A stretch of 64,000 nt of DNA, taken from positions 59,956,001-60,020,000 of the forward strand of contig NC_086108.1 in NCBI RefSeq assembly GCF_963921235.1, written 5' to 3'. The notes under the pieces were generated by a model. The model did not search any database, had not been told where the DNA came from, and worked only from the letters and a program-made list of their open reading frames with translations. Of this stretch, positions 1 through 25,500 are shown one piece after another. Position 1 is the first letter of the stretch. Each line of letters starts with the position of its first letter. This DNA is from Mobula hypostoma. Lineage: Eukaryota. The translations under genes and the position numbers were made by a program.

Positions 1-48
1 TTAAGAAACTGCAAGACCCTGTTGGGAATTATATACAAGTCTCCAAAC

Positions 49-2616
49 GCATAGACAGGATATGGGTCACACTGTTGTGTACATAAATCTATTGATGCTT
101 CTGGACACATCTTCAGTGATGTTCCTGGAATCATCGGGTGTTTCGGGTCTTTCAACATCATACAACCTCCTCCAGGTGACCCAGCTGGGGCTGATCAGAC
201 CCCGGCTTGTGTCCAGTTGGCTAGCTACTTATGACTCCATGGCTCCCCTCTTTTGAGCCACAGCCATCTTGAGGCCCTCTCTGCTGCATTGGTGGTACTG
301 CAGATGGCTCTCCTTTTCCTCTCTCCCTCGATGCCCAAATTGCTGAAGGCTCTAGATAAGGAACGGGCTACGAATCCCCTACAACCAACCTCCACTGGGA
401 GACACCTCGCTCTCCATCCAGCCTGCTGACAGTTGCTGACCAGTCCTGCGTACTTGGAGAGCTTCCTTTCGAAGGCCTCCTCCAAGCTATCTTCCCATGG
501 GACTGTCAGCTCCAGCAGCACCACTTGCTTAGTCGACTCAGATACTAGGACAATGTCTGGTCACAGGGTGGTGGCTGCAATATGGTTAGGGAACTTCAGA
601 TGCCTTTCAAGGTCCACCAACAGCTGCCAGTCCCTTGCAGGGGTCAGAATGCCTGCAGATGTTCTTTTGGCAGGTATTGGCTGCTCCCCAGCTCTGACAA
701 AGGCAATGGTCTGCTTGGAGGGTTGGGACCGCTTCGCCCACTCAACTCCTGCGCTGACGGCTTCAGCGACGGTCTTCAGGACCTGATCATGCCTCCACCT
801 GTACCGTCCCTCACCAAGTGCCCTTGCACAGCCACTGAGGATGTGCTCCAGGGTTCCTCGCTTGGAGCACAGTGGGCACGCAGATGACTCTGCCTTGCCC
901 CATGTGTGCAGGTTTGATGGGCTTGGAAGCACATCGTACACTGCCTGGATGAGAAATTGGATGCGGTGTGGTTTGGCTTTCCAAGGATCATCCCAGGTCA
1001 CTTTCCTCTCAACCGCATTTTCCCATCTTGTCCAAGCTCCCTGTTGCTTCATTCCCACCGCCTTGCAGGCTCTCATCTCCTCCACTACTGCTCTCACCTC
1101 CTCCTGAACTAGATGACGCCTTTCCTTCCCTCTGGTGTCCATTTGGGGAGTTGGAAAGGATCCTAGCCCAGCTCGGCCTCGTGTGACCACTCCCACCAGC
1201 CTCCTGTGACGCAGCCTCGCCTCTGCCTCCTGAACAGCTTCCTCTGCCCTCCACTTCCTGCCAGTACTTACTTGGATCCCTGCTCTAGCCACCTTCGGGT
1301 CACTTGAGTCCCTATACTGTAGCACTTCTCTGGCTCTTGTTTCCTTGAATTCTTCCTCCAAGGATTTGAAGGACAGTTGCAGTTTGTTGTGTCCATAGAG
1401 TGCGATTCTGCTCAGGCTCTTTGGCAGCCCCAGCCATCTCCTGAGGTGGTTGCTAACCCTCCTCTCTAAGGTTTCGACTGTAGAGATTAGAACTGCATAG
1501 ATGAGGAGGGGCCACAGGATTCTGGGAAGAATGCCACACTGATACACCCAGGCTTTAAACTTCCCAGGTAGGCCAGACTTGTCCACAGATTTCAGCCAGC
1601 CATCCAACTCGGTGCAGGTTGCCTGAATGGATGTTGTGTCCCTTAAAGAGCTGTCAAAAACTTTGCCTAAGCTCTTGACTGGCTTTTCTGTGATGTTTGG
1701 GATGGCTGTACCTGCGATGCTGAACCGGAACTTGTTCTCCACCTTCCCTTTCCTCAGCACCATCGATCTTGATTTGGCAGGTTTGAAACGCATCCGGGCC
1801 CACTCCACCAGCTTTTCGAGCCCCTGCAGAATCCTCCGGCAGCCTGGGACTGATTCTATGGTGACTGTGAGGTCATCCATGAATGCCCTGATAGGTGGTT
1901 GCCGTTGAGCGGAATTCATTCTGGGCCCTCTGCACTCTGGTTCAGCAGACTTAGTGAGCATGTTCACGGCTAGGGAGAACAGTGTCACTGAGATAGTGCA
2001 TCCTGTGATGATGCCGACCTCCACCTTGTGCCAGGTTGATGTAATTGTTCCTGAAGAGACCCTCATCCTGAAGTTGCTGTAATAATCAGCGATAAGGTCT
2101 CTGATTCTGCTGGGGACGTGATATTTGGTCAGTGTGAGTTGCACCAGCTTGTGCGGAATGGAGCCATATGCATTTGCCAGGTCGAGCCACAACACTGACA
2201 GGTTGCCCTTGTTCTCTCTGGCCTCCCTGATGAGCTGTGTCACCACACTGATGTGCTCCAGACAGCCCGGCATCCCTGAAATGCCACCCTTCTGGTCTGA
2301 TGTATCAATATAGGGGTTCTTTGCTAGGTGCACATCCGGTTAGAAACTACACTGAAGAAGATCTTCGCCTCGACACACAGCAGGGAGATGATGCGAAACT
2401 GATCTATCTGGGTGGCATTTTCCTCCTTCGGGATCCACACTCTTTCAGCCACTCTCCACGGTTCTGGGATTTTCCCCCTTCTCCAGAAGATTCTCAGGAT
2501 CTTCCACAGACGCAGCAGGAGTTTGGGGCAGTTCTTGTACACTTTGTACAAGGTGCTGCTTGGTCCTGGAGCCGAGCTTGCCCTTGCTTTGCGGACGACC
2601 TCTCTGACTTCTTTTA
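49..2616 (-). mobile_element. 5'-truncated Hero-clade (restriction-like endonuclease, RLE) non-LTR retrotransposon
   Basis: RT motifs WLDLANAYGS, GIITGCTIS and FMDD; CCHC knuckle CPLC..LEHILSGC; RHDQVL; RLE motif (R>*)PDIVL..LLELTVPWE..KY. One frameshift near 2330 and one TGA at 561-563. Confidence 0.85.
225..2616 (-). pseudogene. Hero RT-RLE polyprotein remnant (ORFs 2324-2551, 561-2333, 225-524)
   Basis: Three ORF-track pieces join into one RT/CCHC/PD-(D/E)xK reading. The stop at 561 is a probable CGA>TGA change in RPD. Confidence 0.85.
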
Positions 2617-3525
2617 GTGGGAGACAGAAAAGATACGTCTAAAGGGAAATGCTGCAATAATCACTGGGAATTTCTCTATGAAAATAGATCGGGAAAATCA
2701 GGTTTGTGCTTGATCCCAAAAGTGGGAATTTGTACAATGCCTATGAGATAGATTTTGAAGGCAGCTTATGGTTGAGCCCACTAGAGGAATGAAAGTTCGG
2801 GGTTGGGTGTTATGTAATGACCCAGATTTGATTAGGGAGTTTAAGATAAAGGAATCCTTAGGAGGCAGTGTTAATAACATGATAGAATTCACCCTGGAGT
2901 TTGAGAAAGAGAAGCTAAAGTTCAATGTGTTGGTATAACAGTGGAGTAAAGGGAATTACAGAGGGACGAAAGAGGATCTCCCAATGTTAATTATAAAAAT
3001 AGTGGGAAGGTAGAAGATTGGGAAGCTTTAAAAAATCAACAGAAGGCAAGGTAAAAAACTACAAAGAGAGAAAAAGTTAAATATGAAGGTAAACTAGCCA
3101 ATAACATAAAGGAGGATACAAGAAGTTTTTCCAGATATATAAAAAGTAACAGAGAGATGAGAGTGGATATTAGACCACTGGAAAATGGCGCTAGAGAGGT
3201 AATAATGAGGGGTAAAGAAATGGTGGATGAGCTTAATAAGTATTTTGTGTCAGTCTTCACTCTGGAAGACACTAGCGGTATGCTAGAAATGTGAGTGTGT
3301 CAAGGGACAGAAGTGAGTGCTATTACTAAGGAGAAAGTGTTTGGGAAGCCAAAAAGTCTGAAGGTAGCTAAGTCACCTAGACCAAATAAACTAACCCTAG
3401 GATTCTGAAACAGTTAGCTGAAGAGATCGTGGAGGCATTAGCAATGATCTTTCAGGAATCAGTAGATTCTGAATTGGTTCCAGAGGATCGGAAAATTGCA
3501 AATGTCACTCCACTCTTTAAGATGT

Positions 3526-3541
3526 GGGGGGGGGGGGGGGG
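3526..3541 (+). repeat. poly-G run (16 nt)
   Basis: Directly visible homopolymer within CR1. Confidence 0.95.
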
Positions 3542-4601
3542 AGGTGCAGAAGAAAAGAATTATAGGCCAGTTAGTTTGATTTCAGGGGTTGGAAAAATGT
3601 TGTAATCTGTTATTTAAGGGGAGATTTTGCCTGAGGAATATGTGGAAATTCTTTGAGGAAATTGAAGGCAGGATAGACAAAGGAGAGTCAGTGGATGGTG
3701 TTTACTTGAATTTTCAAAAGATCTTTGAACAAGCTGAGATCCCCGTGGTATTACTGCAAAGGTACTTGTGCAGAGTTCCCTAATGATTAAGCTGTAGGTT
3801 GAGTTGGTGTGAGGGAAGGCAAATGCAATGTTAGCATTCATTTTGAGAAGACTAGAACATAAAAGCAAGGATGTAATATTGACATTTTATATGGCATTTG
3901 TCAGACTGCACTTGGAGAGTGTGAGCTGTTTTGCGTCCCTTATCTAAGAAAAGACACACTGGCATTGGAGAAGGTCCAGAAGAGGTTCACAATAATGATC
4001 CCAGGAATGAAAAGGTTAGCATATGAGTCGTGTTTGATGTCTCTGGGCCTTTGATGTCTCCATGGAGTTTAGCAGAGTGAAGGGGGAGGGATCTCATTGA
4101 AACCTTTTAAATAGTGGATGTAGAATTACATTTCCGATAGTGAGACAGGAAAGGACTACAAGGCACAGCTGAGAATTGAGGGTCATCCATTTAGAACAGA
4201 GATGAAAAAGAAATTCTTTATTCAGAGAGTGGTGAATCAGTGATATTCATTGCCACAGACAGCTGTGCAGGCCAACTCATTGGGTATATTTAAAGTGGAG
4301 GTTGATATATTCTTGATTAATCAGGGCATCAATGATTATGGGGAGAAGGCAGGAGAATGGGGTTGAGAGAGATAATAAATCAGTTATGATGGAATGTTGA
4401 AGCAGATTCGATGGGCCAAATGGCCTAATTCTGCTCCTATATCTTATGGTCTTAAGTACATTGCCAGTCCACCGCGAACATCTCCTTTCATATAGTAATT
4501 GATTGTACTACACACGTACAGTACGTATAAAAAGAATTCACTACCCTTGGAAGTTCTTTTGTTTTATTGTTTTAAACATTAAACCACAGTGGATTTAATC
4601 T

Positions 4602-4821
4602 ACACACATCAAAGTTGCTGGTGAACGCAGCAGGCCAAGCAGCATCTGTAGGAAGAGGTGCAGTCGATGTTTCAGGCCGAGACCCTTCGTCAGGACGAAG
4701 GGTCTCGGCCTGAAACGTCGACTGCTCCTCTTCCTACAGATGCTGCTTGGCCTGCTGCGTTTACCAGCAACTTTGATGTGTGTTGCTTGAATTTCCAGCA
4801 TCTGCAGAATTCCTGTTGTTT
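4602..4821. mobile_element. Palindromic Penelope pseudo-LTR-derived mini-insertion
   Basis: Arms 4602-4691 and 4694-4783 are near-perfect inverted repeats. Exact 13-bp TSD gtggatttaatct at 4589-4601 and 4822-4834. The sequence is homologous to the end of the Penelope at 22511-22645. Confidence 0.85.
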
Positions 4822-5090
4822 GTGGATTTAATCTGTCATTTTTTGGCACTAATCAACAGAAAAAGACTCTTTTTCTACAAAGTGATTTAAATTAATTATA
4901 AATATAAAACACAAAATAATTGACTGCAAAAGTATTCACCCCCTTTAGTATGACACACCAAATCATCACTGGTGCAGCCAATTGGTTTTAGAAGTCAAAT
5001 CACTAGTTAAGTGGAGATCACTGTGTGCAGTCAGCGTGTTTCAGTTGATTGTAGTAAAAATATACCTGTATCTGGAAGGTCTAACGGCTG

Positions 5091-8000
5091 ATGAGTCAGT
5101 ATCCTGGCAAAAACTACACTATAAAGACAAAAGAACACTCCAAGCAACTATGTGAAAAGTTTATTGAAAAGCACAAGTCAGGGGTTGGATACAAGAAAAT
5201 GTTCAAGTCACTGAATATCTGTTGGAGTAGAGTTAAGTCAATCATCAAGAAATGGAAAGAATATGGCACAGCTGTAAATCTGCCTAGAGCATTCTATCCT
5301 CAAAAACCGAGTGACAGTGCAAGAGGAAGACTAGTGAGGGAGGCCACCAAGAGACCTCTGGAGAAGTTACAAGCTTCAGTGGCTGAGATGGGAGAGACTG
5401 CACAGACAACAGCTGTTGCCTGGGTGCTTCACCAGTCACAGCTTTATGGGAGAGTGGCAAAGAGAAAGCCACCGTTGAAAAAAAAATCCTGTGAAATCAC
5501 AGCTAGGGTTTGCAAGAAGGCATGCGAGAGACTCTGACACCAGCTGGAAGAAGGTTCTATGGTCTGATGAAATCAAAATTATGCTTTTTGGCCATCAGAC
5601 TAAACACTAAATTTGGCATAAACTAAACATTAATTAATGGCTCCGTCTGTCTAAGTAGACGATGGATGTGCCCGGTTTAGGACTGGGTGTGGAACAGCGT
5701 TGACTGTGGCTGAATAAGTGGATTCTTGTGCGGCAGTCCTTGGCACAGCTGCTGCACACGAAGGCTGATGTCTGCGGCTAGATTGTCACTGCCACAGTTT
5801 TCCTTCTCTCCCTTCCGCCCGACCACAGTCGAGTTTGTTTTTCCTCTGCATTGGTTATGCCTGTACGTACAGCCTGTCGCCAGGTGCAGCGATTTGCAAC
5901 AGTCTCTTTCCAAGTGTCCACCCTGATATCAGCAGACTTCAGGTTGTGTTTACAAACGTCCCTGTAACGCAGCGGTGGGCCCCCTATGGGCCAGGATCCT
6001 GCGGCGAGTTCTCCGTATAGGATGTCCTTGGGGATGCGGCCATCCTGCATGCGGCGGACGTGGCCAAGCCAGCGCAGTCATCGCTGTGTGAGAAGGATAT
6101 ACATGCTTGGCGTGCTGGCCTGGTCCAGGATGTCCTTGTTTGGCACGTGGTCTTTGCAGGAAATGCCCAGGATCCAACGCAAGCACCGTAGGTGGAAGAT
6201 GTTGAGGCAGTGCTCGTGGCACGCGTAGGTTGTCCAACTCTCACTGCCATAGAGAAGAGTACTCAGTACGCAGGCTCTGTACACTGCAATCTGGTGAGCT
6301 TGTTGTTCTTCCACACTCCCTTTGACAGCTTGGCCATAGCAGCGGTGGCTTTCCCTATTCGCTTGTTGATCTCCGGATCAAGGGACAGATGGCTGGAGGC
6401 TGTCGATCCTAGGTAGGTGAATTCATCTACCACTTGCAGGGTGTGGTTGTCAATGCTGATGCTCGGGGCTTCGCTGATGTCCTGGCCCATGATCTCTGTC
6501 TTCTTCAGACTGATGGTGAGGCCAAACTCTTGGCAAGAATGTGCCATGGAACTGACTTGCCTCTGGAAAACAGACTGTGTGTGTGATGTCAGGGCGGCGT
6601 CATCAGTGAAGAGTATCTCCCAGACCAGGACCTGACGCACTTTGGTCTTTGCTTTGAGGCATGCAAGGTTGTAGAGCTTGTCGTCGGACCTAGCGTGTAG
6701 GTACACTCCGTCATCAGATGTCCTGAAAACATACAACAGTACAAGGGAGAAGAAGAGCATCGGGGCAAGGACGCAACCCTGCTTCACTCCGCTTTGGATG
6801 GGGAAGGGCTCTGAGGATGATCCATCAAATTTTACTGTCCCCTGCATGCCGTCATGGAAAGAGGCGATGAGATTCAGCAGCTTTGAAGGGCATCCGATCT
6901 TCTTCAGGAGTGTGAAGAGGCCTCTTCTGCTAACCAGGTCGAAAGACTTGGTCAGATCGATAAAGGCAACATACAAAGGCTGTCTCTGTTCCCGGCTCTT
7001 CTCCTGTAGCTGCCTGAGTGAGAAGATCATGTCGATGGTGGATCTCTCTGCTCTGAAGCCGCACTGGGACTCAGGGTAGACGCATTCTGCCAGTCTCCAC
7101 TCGCTTCAGAACCACTCGGGCAAATGCCTTGCCAATGGTGTTGAGCAGGAATATGCCTCTGTAATTGTTACAGTCGTTGTGGTCTCCCTTATTCTTGAAC
7201 AATGTGATGATGTCTGCGTCTCGCATGTCTTGGGGAACTGATTCCTCCTCCCAGCCCTGGCAGAGCAGCTCGTGAAGATGGCTTAGGAGCACTGGTTTCC
7301 CGCACTGGATCACTTCTGCAGGGATGCCGTCTTTGCCTGGTGTATGAGCAAGCGAGTCGATAGCCTTGCTGAGTTCTTCCTCTGTTGGGGTAGATTCAGC
7401 TCTTTCATGACAGGTAGGGCAGGGATACTGGCAAGGGCTAACTCAGTTCTCAGTGGAGTACAGATTCTGGTAGTGCTCGGCCCACCTCTCCATCTGCTTG
7501 GCAAGATCTTTGATGACTTCACCGTCCTTGGACTTCAACAGAGCGATCTTGTTAGCAGTGGGCCCGAAGGCTTTCTTCATCCCCTCATACATGCCTTGCA
7601 CATTGCCACTGTCGGCGCAGGTCTGGATGTTCTGGCACAGGTTCTGCCAGTAGTCAATCGCGCAGCGTCTAGCCATCCTTTGAGCATTGTTTCTTGCCAT
7701 TCTCAGTGCAGTGAGATTCTTTTCTGATGAGCCTCTTTTGTAGTTGATCAGAGCTTCTCTCTTGGCATCGAAGACAGGTTCAATCTCAGACAGGTGAGAT
7801 CCAAACCAATCTTGGTTTTTCCTCTCCTTCTTCCCGAGGAATGACATGGCAGTGTTGTAGATGGTGTGACGAATGAATTGCCACCTCTCCTCCATGGTTG
7901 TGGCTGCATTTGCTTTGAAAGCCTGTTCCATTTGGTCGTTGAGTTTCGTGCGAAGTTCTGGGTTCGCTACCTTAGCGGTGTTGATGCGTGGGCATCCTTT

Positions 8001-17462: not shown

Positions 17463-19115
17463 GACCACAAAAGCATAAGGTATAGGAGCAGAATTAAGCC
17501 ATTTGGCCCATCAAGTCTACCCCACCATTTCACCATGGCTGAACCTTACAGTCCAATCTCCTGCCTTCTCTCCATATCCCTTCATGCCCTGATCAATCAA
17601 GATTCTATTAACCTCTGCCTTAAATATACAAAAAGACTTGGCCTCCATAGCTACCTGTGGCAAAGAATTCCATAGATTCACCACTTTCTAGTTAAAGAAA
17701 TTCTACCTCATCTCCGTTCTAAAAGGATGCCCCTTTATTCTGAGGCTGTGTCCTCTGGTCTTAGAATGTCCCATCATAGGAAACACCCTCGCCACATCCA
17801 CGGTATCAAGGCCTTTCAACATTCAATAGATTTCAATGAGGTCACCCCTCATTCTACTGAATTCCAGTGAATACAGGCCCAGAACCATGAAGCGCTCGTC
17901 GTATGACATGCCATTCAATCCTGGAATCATTTTCATGAACCTCCTTTGAACCCTCTCCAGTTTCAGCACATCCTTTCTAAGATAAAGGACCAAAACCTGC
18001 TCACAATACTGTGAGGTCTCACTAGTGCCTTATGAAGTCTGATCGTTGCTTTTATAATCTAGTCCTCTTGAGATGAATGCTAACATTGTATTTGCCTTCC
18101 TCACCACAGACTCAACCTGCAAATTAACCTTTAGGGAATCCTGCACAAAGACTCCCAAATCCCTTTGCACATCAGAGTTTGTATCTTCTCTCTAGTTAGA
18201 AAATGGTCGACACTTTCATTTTTTCTACCAAAGTATACATACAGTACCATATATAACAATATATACCATCTGCCATTTCTTTGCCCATTCTCTAAATCTG
18301 TCCTTCTGTAGCCTCTCTACTTCCTCAAAACTACCTGACCCCCCCAGCTATCATCATATCATCTAAAAACTTTTCAACAAAGCTATCAATTCCATGTCCA
18401 AATCATTGATATATAACGTAAAAAGAATCCGTCTCAACACACACCCCTGTGGAACACCACTCGTCACTGGCAGACAGTCAGAAAAGGCTCCCTTTATTCC
18501 CACTTTCCACCCCCACCCCCCACCAATCAGCCACTGCTTTATCCATGCTAGAATCTTTCCTGTAATACCATGGGCTTGTAGCTTGATAAGCAGCCTCATG
18601 TGTGGCAACTTGTCAAAGGCCTTCGGAAAATCCAACCAATTCAGCATCAACTGATTCTTCTTTGTCTATCCTGCTTGTTACATCTTCAAAGAATTACAAC
18701 AGAATTGTCAGGCAAGGAAATCATGCTGACTACAGCCTATTTTATCATGTGCCTCCAAATACCCTGAGACCTCATCCTTTATAATCGACTCCAACATTTT
18801 CTCAACCACTGAGGTCAGACTAACTGGCCTATGGTTTCCTTTTCCCATCCTCTCTCTTTCTTGAAGAGTGTATTGACATTTGCAATTTTCCAGTCTTCCA
18901 GAACCGTTCCAGAATGAAGTAGTTCTTGAAAGATCATTACTAATGCATCCATAATCACTTCAGCCACCTCTTTCAGAACCTTGGGGTGTACATCATCTGG
19001 TCCAGGTGACTTATCAACCTTCAGAGCTTTGAATTTCCCAAGAAACTATGATAACTTCACACGTCATGACCCCTGACACCTTGAACTTCCACCATACCGC
19101 TAACGTCTTGTGAAA

Positions 19116-22510: not shown

Positions 22511-25500
22511 AAACAAGAGAAGATCTGCAGATGCTGGAAATGCAAGCAACACACACAAAGTGCTGGAGGAACTCAGCAGGCCAGGTAGCATCTATGGAAA
22601 AGAGTACAGTTGATGTTTCAGGTCGAGACCCTTTATCAGGACTGGAGAAAAAAGACGAGGAGTCAGAATTAGGAGGTGGGGGAACGGGGAGGGAGAAACA
22701 CAAGGTGATGGGTGAAACCAGGAGGAGAGGTGAAGTAAAGAGCTGGGAAGCTGATTGGTGAAAGAGACACAGGGCTGGAAAAGGGGGAATCCAATAGGAG
22801 AGAACAGAGGGCATTGAAGACAAAAAGAGGGAGGAGAACCAGAGAGGGGCGATGGGCAGGCTAGGAGATAAAGTGAGAGAGGAAAAAGATGGGAAATGAT
22901 GAAGTGGGGAGGGTGGTTGAGCAATGCCGGAAGTTCAAGAAATCAATATTCATGCCATCAGATTGGAGACTACTCAGAGGGAATATAAGGTGTTGCTCCT
23001 CCAACCTGAGTGTGTGGCCTCATCACGGCAGTAGAGGAGCCCATGGGTTGACATGTCGGAATGGGAATGGGAAGAGCAATTAAAATGGGTGGCCGCTGAG
23101 AGATCCCGCTTTTTCTGGGGGACATAGGCACATGGAAACATAAAAAACCTACAGCACAATACAGGCCCTTCGGCCCACAAAACTGTGCCAAACATGAACT
23201 ACCTAGGCTTTACCCATAGCCTTCTATTCTTCTAAGCTCCATGTAACCATCCAGGAGTCTCTTAAAAGACCCTATCGTTTCCGCCTCCACCACCACCGCC
23301 GGCAGCCCATTCCACACACTCACCACTCTCTGCGTAAAAAACTTACCCCTGACATCTCCTCTGTACCTACTTCCAAGCACCTTAAAGTTATGCCCTCTTG
23401 TGCTAGCCATTTCAGCCCTGGGGAAAAGCCTCTGACTATCCACACAATCAATGCCTCTCATTATCTTGAACACCTCTATCAGGTCACATCTCATCCTCCA
23501 TCACTGCAAGGAGAAAAGGCCGAGTTCACTCAACCTGTTCTCATAAGGCATGCTCCCCAATCCAGGAAACATCCTTGTAAATCTCCTCTGCACCCTTTCT
23601 ATGGTTTCCACATTCTTTCTATGGTGAGGTGACCAGAACTGAGCACAGTATTCCAAGTGGGGTCTGACCAGGGTCCTATATAGCTCCAACATTACTTCTC
23701 AGCTCTTAAACTCAATCCCATGGTTGATGAAGGCCAATGCACTGTATGCCTTCTTAACCACAGAGTCAACCTGCTTTGAGTGTCCAATGGACTCAGGCCC
23801 CAAGATCCCTCTGATCCTCCACACTGACAAGAGTCTTACCATTAATGCTATATTCTGCCATTATATTTGACCTACCAAAATGAACCACCTCACACTTAAC
23901 TGGGTGAAACTCCATCTGCCACTTCTCAGCCCAGTTTTGCATCCCATCAATGTCCCGCTGTAACCTCTGACAGCCCTCCACACTATCCACAACACCCCCA
24001 ATCTTTGTGTCATCAGCAAATTTACTAACCCATCCCTCCATTTCCTCATCCAGGTCATTTATAAAAATCACAAAGAGTAGGGGTCCCAGAACAGATCCCT
24101 GAGGCACACCACTGGTCACCAGCCTCCATGCAGAATATGACCCATCTACAACCACTCTTGACCTTCTCTAGGCAAGCCAGTTCTGGATCCACAAAGCAAT
24201 GTCCCCTTGGATCCCATACCTCCCTACTTTCTCAATAAATCTTGCATGGGGTACCTTATCAAATGGACCATAGGTGGTCAGTGCTCATCGAACGGATGGA
24301 CCATAGGTGCTTGGCAAAATGGTGCCTCAACCTATGTCAGGTCTCACCAATATACAAGAGGCCACACTGAGAGCACAGGATACAGTAAATGATCCCAACA
24401 GACCCACAGGTGGAGTGTCGCCTCACCTGCAAGGACTGTTTGGGACCCTGAATGGTAGTGAGGGAGGAGGTGTAGGAGCAGGTGTAGCACTTGTTCTTCT
24501 TGCAAGGATAAGTGCCAGGAGGGAGATCAGTGGGGAAGAATGAATGGACAAGGGAGTCACATAGGGAGTGATCCCCGTGGAAAGTAGAAAGTGGGGGGGG
24601 GGAGGGAAAGATGTGATTGGTGGTGTGATCCCGTTGTAGATGGCAGAAGTTATGGAGGATTATATGCTGGACACGGAGGCTGGTGATGTGATAGGTGAGG
24701 ACAAGAGGAACCCTACCCCTGATGGGGTGGCAAGAGGATGGGGTGAGGGAAGACTTGCACGAAATGAAAGAGATGTGGTTGAGGGCAGCATTGATGGTGA
24801 AGGCATGGAAGCCCCTTTCTTTGAAGAAGGAGGACATCTCCTTCGTTCTTGAATGAAAGGCCTCATCCTGAGAGCAGATGCGACAGACATGGAGGAATTG
24901 AGAGAAGGGGATGGCATTTTTACAAGTAACAGCAGTAGGAAGAGGTAAAGTCAAGGTAGATGTGACAATCAGTAGGTTTACAATAGAAATCAGTCGATAA
25001 GCTATCTCCAGAGATAAAGACAGAGAGATCAAGAAAGGGAAGGGAGGTGTCGGAAATGAACCAGGTAAATTTAAGGGCAAGATGGAAGTTGGAGGCAAAG
25101 TTGATGAAGTCAACGAGCTTGGCGTGGCTGCAAGAAGCAGCACCATTGTAGTCATCGATGTAGTGTAGAAAAACAGGGGGAGCGACGCCGGTGTAGACTT
25201 GGAACATAAACTGTTCCATTTAGCTGACAAAAAGGCAGGCATAGCTGGGACCCATGCAAGTGCCCATGGCTACAGCTTTTAGTTTGAAGGAAGTGGGAGG
25301 AGCCAAAGGAGAAATTATTGAGAGTGAGGACAAGTAATGCCATACAGAGGAGAGTGGTGGTAGAGGGGAACTGGTTAGGTCTGATGTCCAGAAAAAATGG
25401 AGAGCTTTGGGGTCTTCCTGGTGAGGGATGGAGGTGTACAGGGACTGAACATCCATGGTGAAAATAAGATGCTCGGGGCCCGGGAACTTGAAGTAATTGA

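Follow-up and report, generated by a model that had tools for sequence, protein, structure and literature searches.

A conserved pseudoknotted hammerhead domain, probably self-cleaving, in the 3′ untranslated region of a retrotransposon of Mobula hypostoma

The subject of this report is a 64,000-nucleotide stretch of the Mobula hypostoma genome (contig NC_086108.1, positions 59,956,001 to 60,020,000; hereafter the window, in whose numbering all positions are given), which carries near its beginning, on the minus strand, a 5′-truncated copy of a retrotransposon of the long interspersed nuclear element (LINE) type. In the 3′ untranslated region (UTR) of this element, minus-strand positions 216-101 make up a domain of ~116 nucleotides (nt) in which every core nucleotide of the hammerhead ribozyme is present and for which a pseudoknotted fold is indicated by comparison with diverged relatives. 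We consider it probable that this is a conserved hammerhead domain with the architecture of a circularly permuted type-SGC hammerhead, and that self-cleavage is most likely its activity. The strand order and the host element are new, while type-SGC hammerheads, which are not circular permutations of the classical types, have been known since 2023. An earlier note on this stretch, made from its letters alone, had called the scrambled order undescribed, but the S-G-C order of blocks had already been published as type SGC (Eckert et al., 2023; PMC10085705).

Read 5′ to 3′ on the minus strand, the domain opens with X′ (CTGGACACA, 216-208), the 5′ strand of a closing helix that pairs with 109-101 and appears also in the minimum free energy fold. 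Then come a hairpin (207-183), recognised by the complementarity of its stem across relatives and having the palindromic loop core TGATCA at 197-192, and Y (GGGTC, 182-178), the 5′ strand of stem II, covering hammerhead positions 10.1-10.5 and pairing with 149-145. A one-nucleotide linker, A177, separates Y from B (CCTGGA, 176-171), the 5′ strand of a fourth helix, whose partner is 129-124; the linker GGA (170-168) leads to the 3′ strand of stem III (GGTTGT, 167-162), which pairs with 141-136 and ends with U16.1. Position 161 is H17, an A, and cleavage is predicted between 161 and 160, from the composition of H17 in relatives and by analogy with known hammerheads. Directly behind lies the 5′ strand of stem I (TGATGTT, 160-154), joined by a GAAA linker (153-150) to Y′ (GACCC, 149-145; positions 11.5-11.1), the 3′ strand of stem II. 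G12-A13-A14 (144-142) and the 5′ strand of stem III (ACACCC, 141-136, its first base being A15.1) follow, and then the linker GATGAT (135-130), B′ (TCCAGG, 129-124), the 3′ strand of stem I (AACATCA, 123-117, pairing with 160-154), the core CTGAAGA from C3 to A9 (116-110) and, starting directly after A9, X (TGTGTCCAG, 109-101), the 3′ strand of the closing helix. Y.Y′ thus sits in the position of hammerhead stem II, its last pair being G10.1-C11.1, which adjoins G12. Much of this had been seen in the earlier note: CTGAAGA at 116-110, GAAA at 144-141 and a GTA triplet at 163-161 are all in the places it gave, its stem I is indeed a perfect helix of 7 base pairs (bp), and its stem III has the single mismatch (C.U) that it described. 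Its placement of the motif in the 3′ UTR also holds, since the open reading frame (ORF) ends with a TAG stop codon at 227-225 and the motif lies downstream.

How easily could such words come together by chance in an ordinary UTR? A loose descriptor, comprising the S-G-C order plus stems I and III, gives 0.1 matches per random 64-kb window, and the predicted fold of the 3′ UTR, calculated by a program that excludes pseudoknots, is of ordinary energy (z = -0.85, with 42 of 200 shuffles equally stable), which speaks neither for the domain nor against coincidence. The full four-helix descriptor, in contrast, matches once in the real window and in 0 of 40 random windows, and coincidence would have to account as well for the four covarying helices and the fixed core nucleotides described below, so that we find it hardly credible. 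Because the window alone left the matter undecided and the copies within the genome are too alike for covariation to be seen, diverged relatives were examined. The motif is not a product of chance, and the decisive evidence is comparative, consisting of compensatory changes in those relatives.

Protein relatives of the element are found in lancelets, in bivalves and in many teleosts, at 43-82% identity; a Tetraodon 'polyprotein' (P0022), for example, is 67% identical to the window protein. An alignment of 25 relatives (A1) was used to retrieve relative-encoding DNA from metagenome contigs. This gave 301 stretches, the best 80 of which, with 36-69% protein identity to the window, were kept, and in 36 of these loci a usable 3′ UTR, that is, a stop codon with at least 150 nt downstream, was available. 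CUGANGA occurs at most 260 nt after the stop codon in 31 of the 36 UTRs, with (C)GAAAC 25-45 nt ahead of it. Two alignments were made. A segment parse anchored on the core words revealed the common layout in 33 of 47 sequences; after the doubtful parse of L055 was dropped, the remaining 32 were aligned by MAFFT blind to structure (A2). A covariance model containing helices B and III only was also built, and it yields 47 matches in 41 of the 80 metagenome loci plus the window, which form a second alignment of 47 sequences (A3). Of the 36 loci whose UTR was usable, 32 have the domain behind the stop codon according to this model. Missed are L043, where the contig end cuts the domain and the segment parse finds the motif; L055, which is diverged; L071, with 185 nt only; and L105, which has no motif. 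In the more distant relatives L098, L099 and L072, the ribozyme domain is located 0.4-1.6 kb from the ORF and not directly after its stop.

In the structure-blind alignment, 83.8% of the cells of helices Y.Y′, B.B′, III and I are paired versus 62.6% on shuffling, and none of 500 shuffles reaches the observed value; when the partners are slid by 1-3 columns, 38-48% are paired. Compensatory, two-sided change is seen in 21 of the 24 pairs. The model-based alignment A3 gives the same picture, with 82.6% paired overall versus 60.3% shuffled (0/500) and 35-46% in the slid controls. Two of its helices lie outside the structure on which the model was built: stem II, paired at 93.8% with compensatory change in 4 of 5 pairs, and stem I, at 86.9% with such change in 6 of 6. 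Helix B is paired at 84.8%, again with compensatory change in all six pairs, and stem III at 89-91%, while G10.1-C11.1 is a GC pair in 37 of 41 sequences. The closing helix can also be recognised in relatives, where the best helix between X and X′ has a mean of 10.1 bp versus 6.8 bp with mismatched partners, reaching 14-15 bp in some, and X starts directly after A9 in 20 of 32. A check of conservation and covariation such as the earlier note had proposed, made here on the metagenome relatives, turned out partly in its favour: the core is kept, stems I and III covary, and a strand order outside types I-III that needs pseudoknots is backed by the covariation.

The same data bear on which strand forms stem II. 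The earlier note had taken it to be gtgtc (108-104), located after an extra U behind CUGANGA, paired with gaccc (149-145), which would make the domain a plain type-SGC hammerhead. In the window, 4 of the 5 positions of this helix can pair, and the block order would be that published for type SGC (PMC10085705). Across the 32 relatives, however, the 5 nt that follow CUGANGA by one position pair with Y′ in 47.8% of cells as against 44.5% on shuffling, a value reached by 43 of 500 shuffles and no higher than in the slid controls, whereas the upstream partner is paired at 92-94% across A2 and A3 with compensatory change. Moreover, what follows A9 is taken up by another helix, X.X′, which covaries. 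The downstream stem II is therefore given up as very improbable. Pairings that had been listed as competing folds turn out to be parts of the domain itself: gggtc/gaccc is the actual stem II, formed by the upstream GGGTC at 182-178, and cctgga/tccagg and ggggtctga/tcagcccc correspond to helix B and to the hairpin with the palindromic loop.

Conservation of the core follows the same line. In A3, C3 is present in 44 of 46 sequences, U4, G5, A6, G8 and A9 in 46 of 46 each, G12 in 44 of 46, A13 and A14 in 46 of 46, A15.1 in 47 of 47, U16.1 in 42 of 46 and C11.1 in 45 of 46. These sequences were picked by a model that contains the core, and the percentages at fixed positions are inflated accordingly, which has to be counted against their weight. 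Two further positions are not guaranteed by this selection, namely N7, which varies freely (U 23, C 10, A 11, G 2), and H17, which is U in 22, C in 14, A in 10 and G in none of 46; a free N7 and an H17 that is never G are what is expected of an active hammerhead. On these sequence grounds, the pattern of core conservation matches that of a catalytic hammerhead. What distinguishes a hammerhead is accordingly found here, namely a conserved core whose H17 is not G, flanked by three covarying helices that include G10.1-C11.1.

Like hammerheads of types I-III, the domain has the core nucleotides, G10.1-C11.1, A15.1-U16.1, an N-U-H cleavage site and three covarying core helices, but its order, II5′-S-G-(I3′-CUGANGA), cannot be derived from the three blocks by circular permutation, and it gives no match in Rfam. 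Indeed, no Rfam ribozyme family, the hammerhead models Hammerhead_1, _3, _II, HH9 and HH10 included, scores at E <= 10 in window positions 1-6000 or in 11 motif-carrying loci, as had been anticipated in the earlier note for standard hammerhead models. The nearest known system was described by Eckert, Friedrich, Weinberg and Weinberg (Nucleic Acids Research, 2023; PMC10085705), who reported natural hammerheads that are not circular permutations, including type SGC with its HRIMA-1 motif and variants. Besides helices I, II and III, type SGC has a helix by which I and II are connected at their far sides, and its layout is given in the supplement as III3′-UH-I5′-(~3 nt)-II3′-GAAA-III5′-...-B′-I3′-CUGAUGA-II5′-(1 nt)-B. 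In vitro, RNAs of this type with a length of 79-81 nt cut themselves in cis at the predicted site; activity is lost on mutation of G5, and each of the four helices can be rescued by compensatory mutations (PMC10085705). The accessions of that study are from IMG/M, except one bacterial RefSeq sequence that is a candidate for type GCS, and the published examples of type SGC come from metagenomes and metatranscriptomes, near hairpin ribozymes. In its text and the relevant supplement passages, retrotransposons and animal genomes appear only in cited titles. Three hammerhead topologies are still described in a 2026 preprint (bioRxiv 10.64898/2026.07.22.740005), while a 2026 paper in Nucleic Acids Research refers to "alternative permutations" of the hammerhead.

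The window domain and type SGC share the core, the four helices, the S-G-C1 order, the pseudoknotted nature and the property of being missed by classical descriptors. In both, a few nucleotides join the 5′ strand of stem I to the 3′ strand of stem II, and a single one lies between the 5′ strand of stem II and the strand of the fourth helix. In type SGC, however, the 5′ strand of stem II comes directly after CUGANGA, whereas in the window domain that strand, together with its helix B strand, stands upstream of the cleavage-site block. Unlike type SGC, the window domain continues from A9 into the closing helix and carries a hairpin between this helix and G10.1, and both of its strands connect stem III to helix B by way of a kink-turn-like loop. 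The block order and the fourth helix of type SGC are thus found, and the uninterrupted block C is not: by its sequence arrangement the window domain is a type SGC that has been circularly permuted, with the opening between A9 and G10.1. Block C had been taken as uninterruptible, since in known hammerhead alignments no insertion between A9 and G10.1 exceeds 1-2 nt, and of the six block orders considered possible four or five have natural support (PMC10085705). Going by the strands as they lie in the sequence, the order of the window domain is outside these six and breaks block C. Type SGC is active in cis with the same four helices, and it follows that the permuted fold can work. The new ends created by the permutation would be held by X.X′, and the four helices together with X.X′ would keep the cleavage products together.

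By analogy, self-cleavage would most likely take place between A161 and U160, leaving a 2′,3′-cyclic phosphate and a 5′-OH. What could such a cut be good for? Its likeliest job would be to cut transcripts spanning more than one unit, in a manner resembling the hammerheads of Penelope-like elements and retrozymes, because most 5′-complete insertions of the family run into a further partial unit. On contig C1 the family's 5′ UTR was located beside a tandem pair, and the genome has 158 occurrences of a 32-base stretch taken from it, ~7% of the count of the ribozyme 3′ half: the 34 nt directly 3′ of the proposed cut occur 2368 times with at most one mismatch, as against 0 for a reversed control. 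Among the 30 copies reaching the 5′ UTR (L187-L216), 26 run seamlessly upstream into the 3′ tail of another unit, the junction reading ...GTACACAGC then TTACACCCTGAG..., and the upstream partial units start anywhere between the equivalents of window 88 and 956; L187 and L209 begin at or beside TTACACCC. The junctions are seamless and the upstream tail is of variable length, and therefore templates, or template switches, span more than one unit. At least 13 metagenome contigs have the next ORF starting 300-450 nt downstream of the domain, and several contain two domains at a spacing of one unit, 3.64-3.73 kb. Such tandem units are real and not produced by wrap-around in assembly, as the two copies differ slightly.

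The retroelement hammerheads of Penelope-like elements and retrozymes are similar also in occurring in partial or full tandems (10.64898/2026.07.22.740005). They are, however, of type I (or III) and belong to Penelope-like or non-autonomous elements, whereas here a permuted domain of ~116 nt is found in an autonomous LINE. R2 offers another comparison, being in the same broad group of LINEs and having a ribozyme as well as a structured 3′ UTR that directs reverse transcription, but the ribozyme of R2 is hepatitis delta virus (HDV)-like and at the 5′ end, while that of the window element is of a different class at the opposite end. No ribozyme, including the HDV-like one, was found by Rfam at E <= 10 at the unit junction or in the 5′ UTR. 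A literature search likewise revealed no description of a hammerhead in Hero, Zebulon, NeSL-type or related LINEs with restriction-like endonucleases, although subscription journals and supplements could hold one.

Several observations weigh against self-cleavage and have to be set beside this proposal. Stem III of the window contains the C.U mismatch already mentioned, which is common to the other sampled copies of the family, and the insertion of a helix between A9 and G10.1 has no precedent with an activity assay. A cut here would deprive the ORF of the tail at which reverse transcription is started, which makes a benefit to the element hard to see. The copies themselves show little trace of such a cut: taken in genome order, 0 of 60 start at 160 and all 60 extend upstream of it, and the 26 upstream partial units likewise include none with its start at exactly 160, the nearest being L191 at ~155, while ~17 start beyond the site. 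Two contigs from an RNA library also bridge the cleavage site. In a smaller sample, one of 16 copies (L126) apparently starts near 163, and there are 9 starts in the 72 nt of 88-157 as against 4 in the 100 nt of 160-260, a difference in density that is only weakly suggestive. No sampled copy begins at the cut, most read through it, and cleavage would separate ORF and tail; therefore cleavage, if it occurs, must be partial or regulated, unless it is reversed or the enzyme bridges the cut.

The same observations can be explained if the hammerhead-like fold does not cleave in vivo and serves mainly as a 3′ UTR module bound by the reverse transcriptase for target-primed reverse transcription. Such a module would be in a suitable place, as the domain ends ~30 nt before the fixed 3′ end of the insertions, and both the reading of site 160 through in 60 of 60 copies and ~17 of 26 upstream partial units and the missing pile-up of 5′ ends at the site would need no special explanation. 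The R2 protein is also known to bind a pseudoknotted 3′ UTR RNA (PMC12222951). A purely structural role, however, does not account for an H17 that is never G, for N7 being the sole freely varying core position, as in active hammerheads, or for the retention of all residues required for catalysis across relatives whose proteins are 36-69% identical to that of the window, and the same four-helix architecture is active in type SGC (PMC10085705). A module that never cleaves is thus unlikely to be the whole explanation. The structural and the cleaving roles are compatible with each other, and the self-cleaving domain that we prefer probably doubles as a structured 3′ module recognised by the protein of the element, because ~30 nt separate it from the fixed 3′ end at which reverse transcription is begun.

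The hairpin between X′ and Y deserves attention on its own account. Its stem differs in sequence between relatives with complementarity kept; pairing in fixed columns of A3 is only 58.4%, which is ascribed to length variation. Its loop contains a 6-nt palindrome in 20 of 31 sequences (TGATCA in 13, TGGCCA in 5, TGTACA in 1 and AGTACT in 1), as against a few percent expected by chance, and the central pair of the palindrome changes in a complementary way (AU, GC, UA). A self-complementary loop hexamer that is kept through change is the sequence hallmark of a kissing-loop hairpin of the kind of a dimerisation initiation site, and the palindromic loop therefore points to dimerisation through loop-loop contact.

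Dimerisation raises the question of whether the hammerhead forms within one molecule at all. It may be that it is assembled between two RNAs, or between two units of one transcript, which are held by the kissing loops and form stems I and II in trans, so that cleavage would depend on the dimer. Four different palindromes and their complementary central changes would then have an immediate use, and partners would be at hand, as insertions often comprise more than one unit and tandem units exist. Rough helix-length geometry suggests that a closed cis fold is strained, although this geometry is too crude to decide between cis and dimer. Small hammerheads of Penelope-like elements are also reported to cleave as dimers. 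On the other hand, all the pairings form equally well in one molecule, and sequence alone cannot separate the two arrangements; the palindrome could also dimerise for another purpose such as template switching. The short type-SGC RNAs, at 79-81 nt, do cleave in cis, and how a closed cis fold fits was a puzzle raised by Eckert et al. for type SGC itself (PMC10085705). We regard the obligate dimer as possible but rather unlikely. Of the pseudoknotted or dimeric fold that had been envisaged in the earlier note, the pseudoknot is borne out by covariation, and the dimer keeps some plausibility from the palindromic loop.

Stem III and helix B are joined on both strands by linkers with a recurrent pattern, reading NGA and NNNGAN in 14 of 26 sequences. 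A kink-turn consists of a 3-nt bulge followed by tandem G.A/A.G pairs, placed between a Watson-Crick C helix and an NC helix. From the linker sequences it is proposed that NGA/NNNGAN forms a kink-turn with stem III as its C helix. GGA at 170-168 would then be the non-bulged strand (pattern N-G-A; G 31/46, A 37/46) and GATGAT at 135-130 the bulged one (pattern NNN-GA-N; G 39/44, A 37/44). A subgroup of relatives (L068, L081 and L092) has 0 nt on one linker strand. This kink-turn-like joint and the closing helix make the domain a good candidate for structure determination.

A more far-reaching possibility should be mentioned. The ribozyme might be built from both ends of the unit RNA, such that in tandem transcripts, or others exceeding one unit, a type-SGC hammerhead closed by X.X′ has the ~3.6-kb body of the retrotransposon inserted between its A9 and G10.1. 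Double cleavage would then release a unit-length RNA with its ends still paired in the ribozyme, which could be circularised by ligation or copied across the nick. We think this unlikely, and the idea is a speculative one. If true, however, such a ribozyme together with kissing-loop dimerisation would explain why most 5′-complete insertions run into a further unit, and it would mean rolling or template-switching reverse transcription for an autonomous LINE. Apart from this, the order and the setting described here carry several implications. An order that splits a supposedly indivisible block means that present search rules for ribozymes are too narrow. Within the literature searched, this is the first hammerhead not related to the classical types by circular permutation to be connected with an animal genome, and the first in an autonomous retrotransposon. 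It also links three matters, namely multi-unit insertion of LINEs, the role of hammerheads in retroelements, and the closure of a pseudoknotted hammerhead in three dimensions.

The element that carries the domain has its ORF at 2623-228 on the minus strand, truncated at the 5′ end near 2623 and interrupted by one in-frame stop; in a tblastn search with protein P0001, it spans residues 283-1082. Pfam matches are RVT_1 at 2.8e-16 and zf-RVT, and the C-terminus is PD-(D/E)xK-like (PD...E...K), with the C/H and D...E columns invariant in protein alignment A1. A single ORF with a reverse transcriptase, a zinc-binding motif and a PD-(D/E)xK-type domain, together with 5′-truncated copies lacking poly(A), is what is found in LINEs with a restriction-like endonuclease, the R2 superfamily. 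The family name is another matter. The label 'Hero', used in the earlier note, and Zebulon are candidate names; the window family resembles Zebulon and the 'Hero' clade of Repbase in being a fish LINE with a reverse transcriptase and a C-terminal restriction-like endonuclease, and its insertions are preceded by partial units. A query protein 52% identical to the window ORF found genome copies only at 48-50% identity to itself, which apparently belong to the window's own family.

With a 341-base query, copies 95-97% identical were found in the genome, 2478 candidates at first look, and the element is a young and abundant repeat. Copies are truncated at the 5′ end at many positions, and their 3′ ends, without poly(A), correspond to window 77-65. 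The 3′ tail of the window copy (100-66) has its variable end after ...ACACA(A/G)C..., at about 76-66, as judged from 30 copies that end at the equivalents of 77-65. At 66-77 of the window and in L002-L030, the insertion ends read ...ACACAG followed by C, CAG, CAGTG or CAGTGTG, and they differ from the unit junctions, which read ACACAGC and then TTACACC. In some genome copies the matched frame runs uninterrupted by a stop for as many as 1166 residues, so that the family may have been active recently. Two others, L014 and L024, have part of the N-terminal region (residues ~26-136 or ~53-114 of the ORF) fused directly to the C-terminal ~60 residues, and may be internally deleted derivatives. In the 5′ UTR of full-length copies (L145/L189) three or four small hairpins whose loops are rich in purines form an array (e.g. 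CCAGGAAAGACTGG, CCACGAAAAGAGTGG, CTGGAGAGTCAG) and TGAC between them, for which the Rfam scan gave no match; the array recurs, with changed stems, downstream of the ribozyme in L038, L040, L042, L056, L064, L065 and L068. Elsewhere in the window, weak reverse transcriptase matches (20-26% identity) at 6752-7036, 18399-18830 and 23811-24263 are probably remnants of other retroelements. A long inverted repeat at 4635-4750 is near-perfect, its arms measuring at least ~27 bp, and gives sub-threshold matches to microRNA precursors on both strands (mir-3926, 47 bits as against a gathering score of 82).

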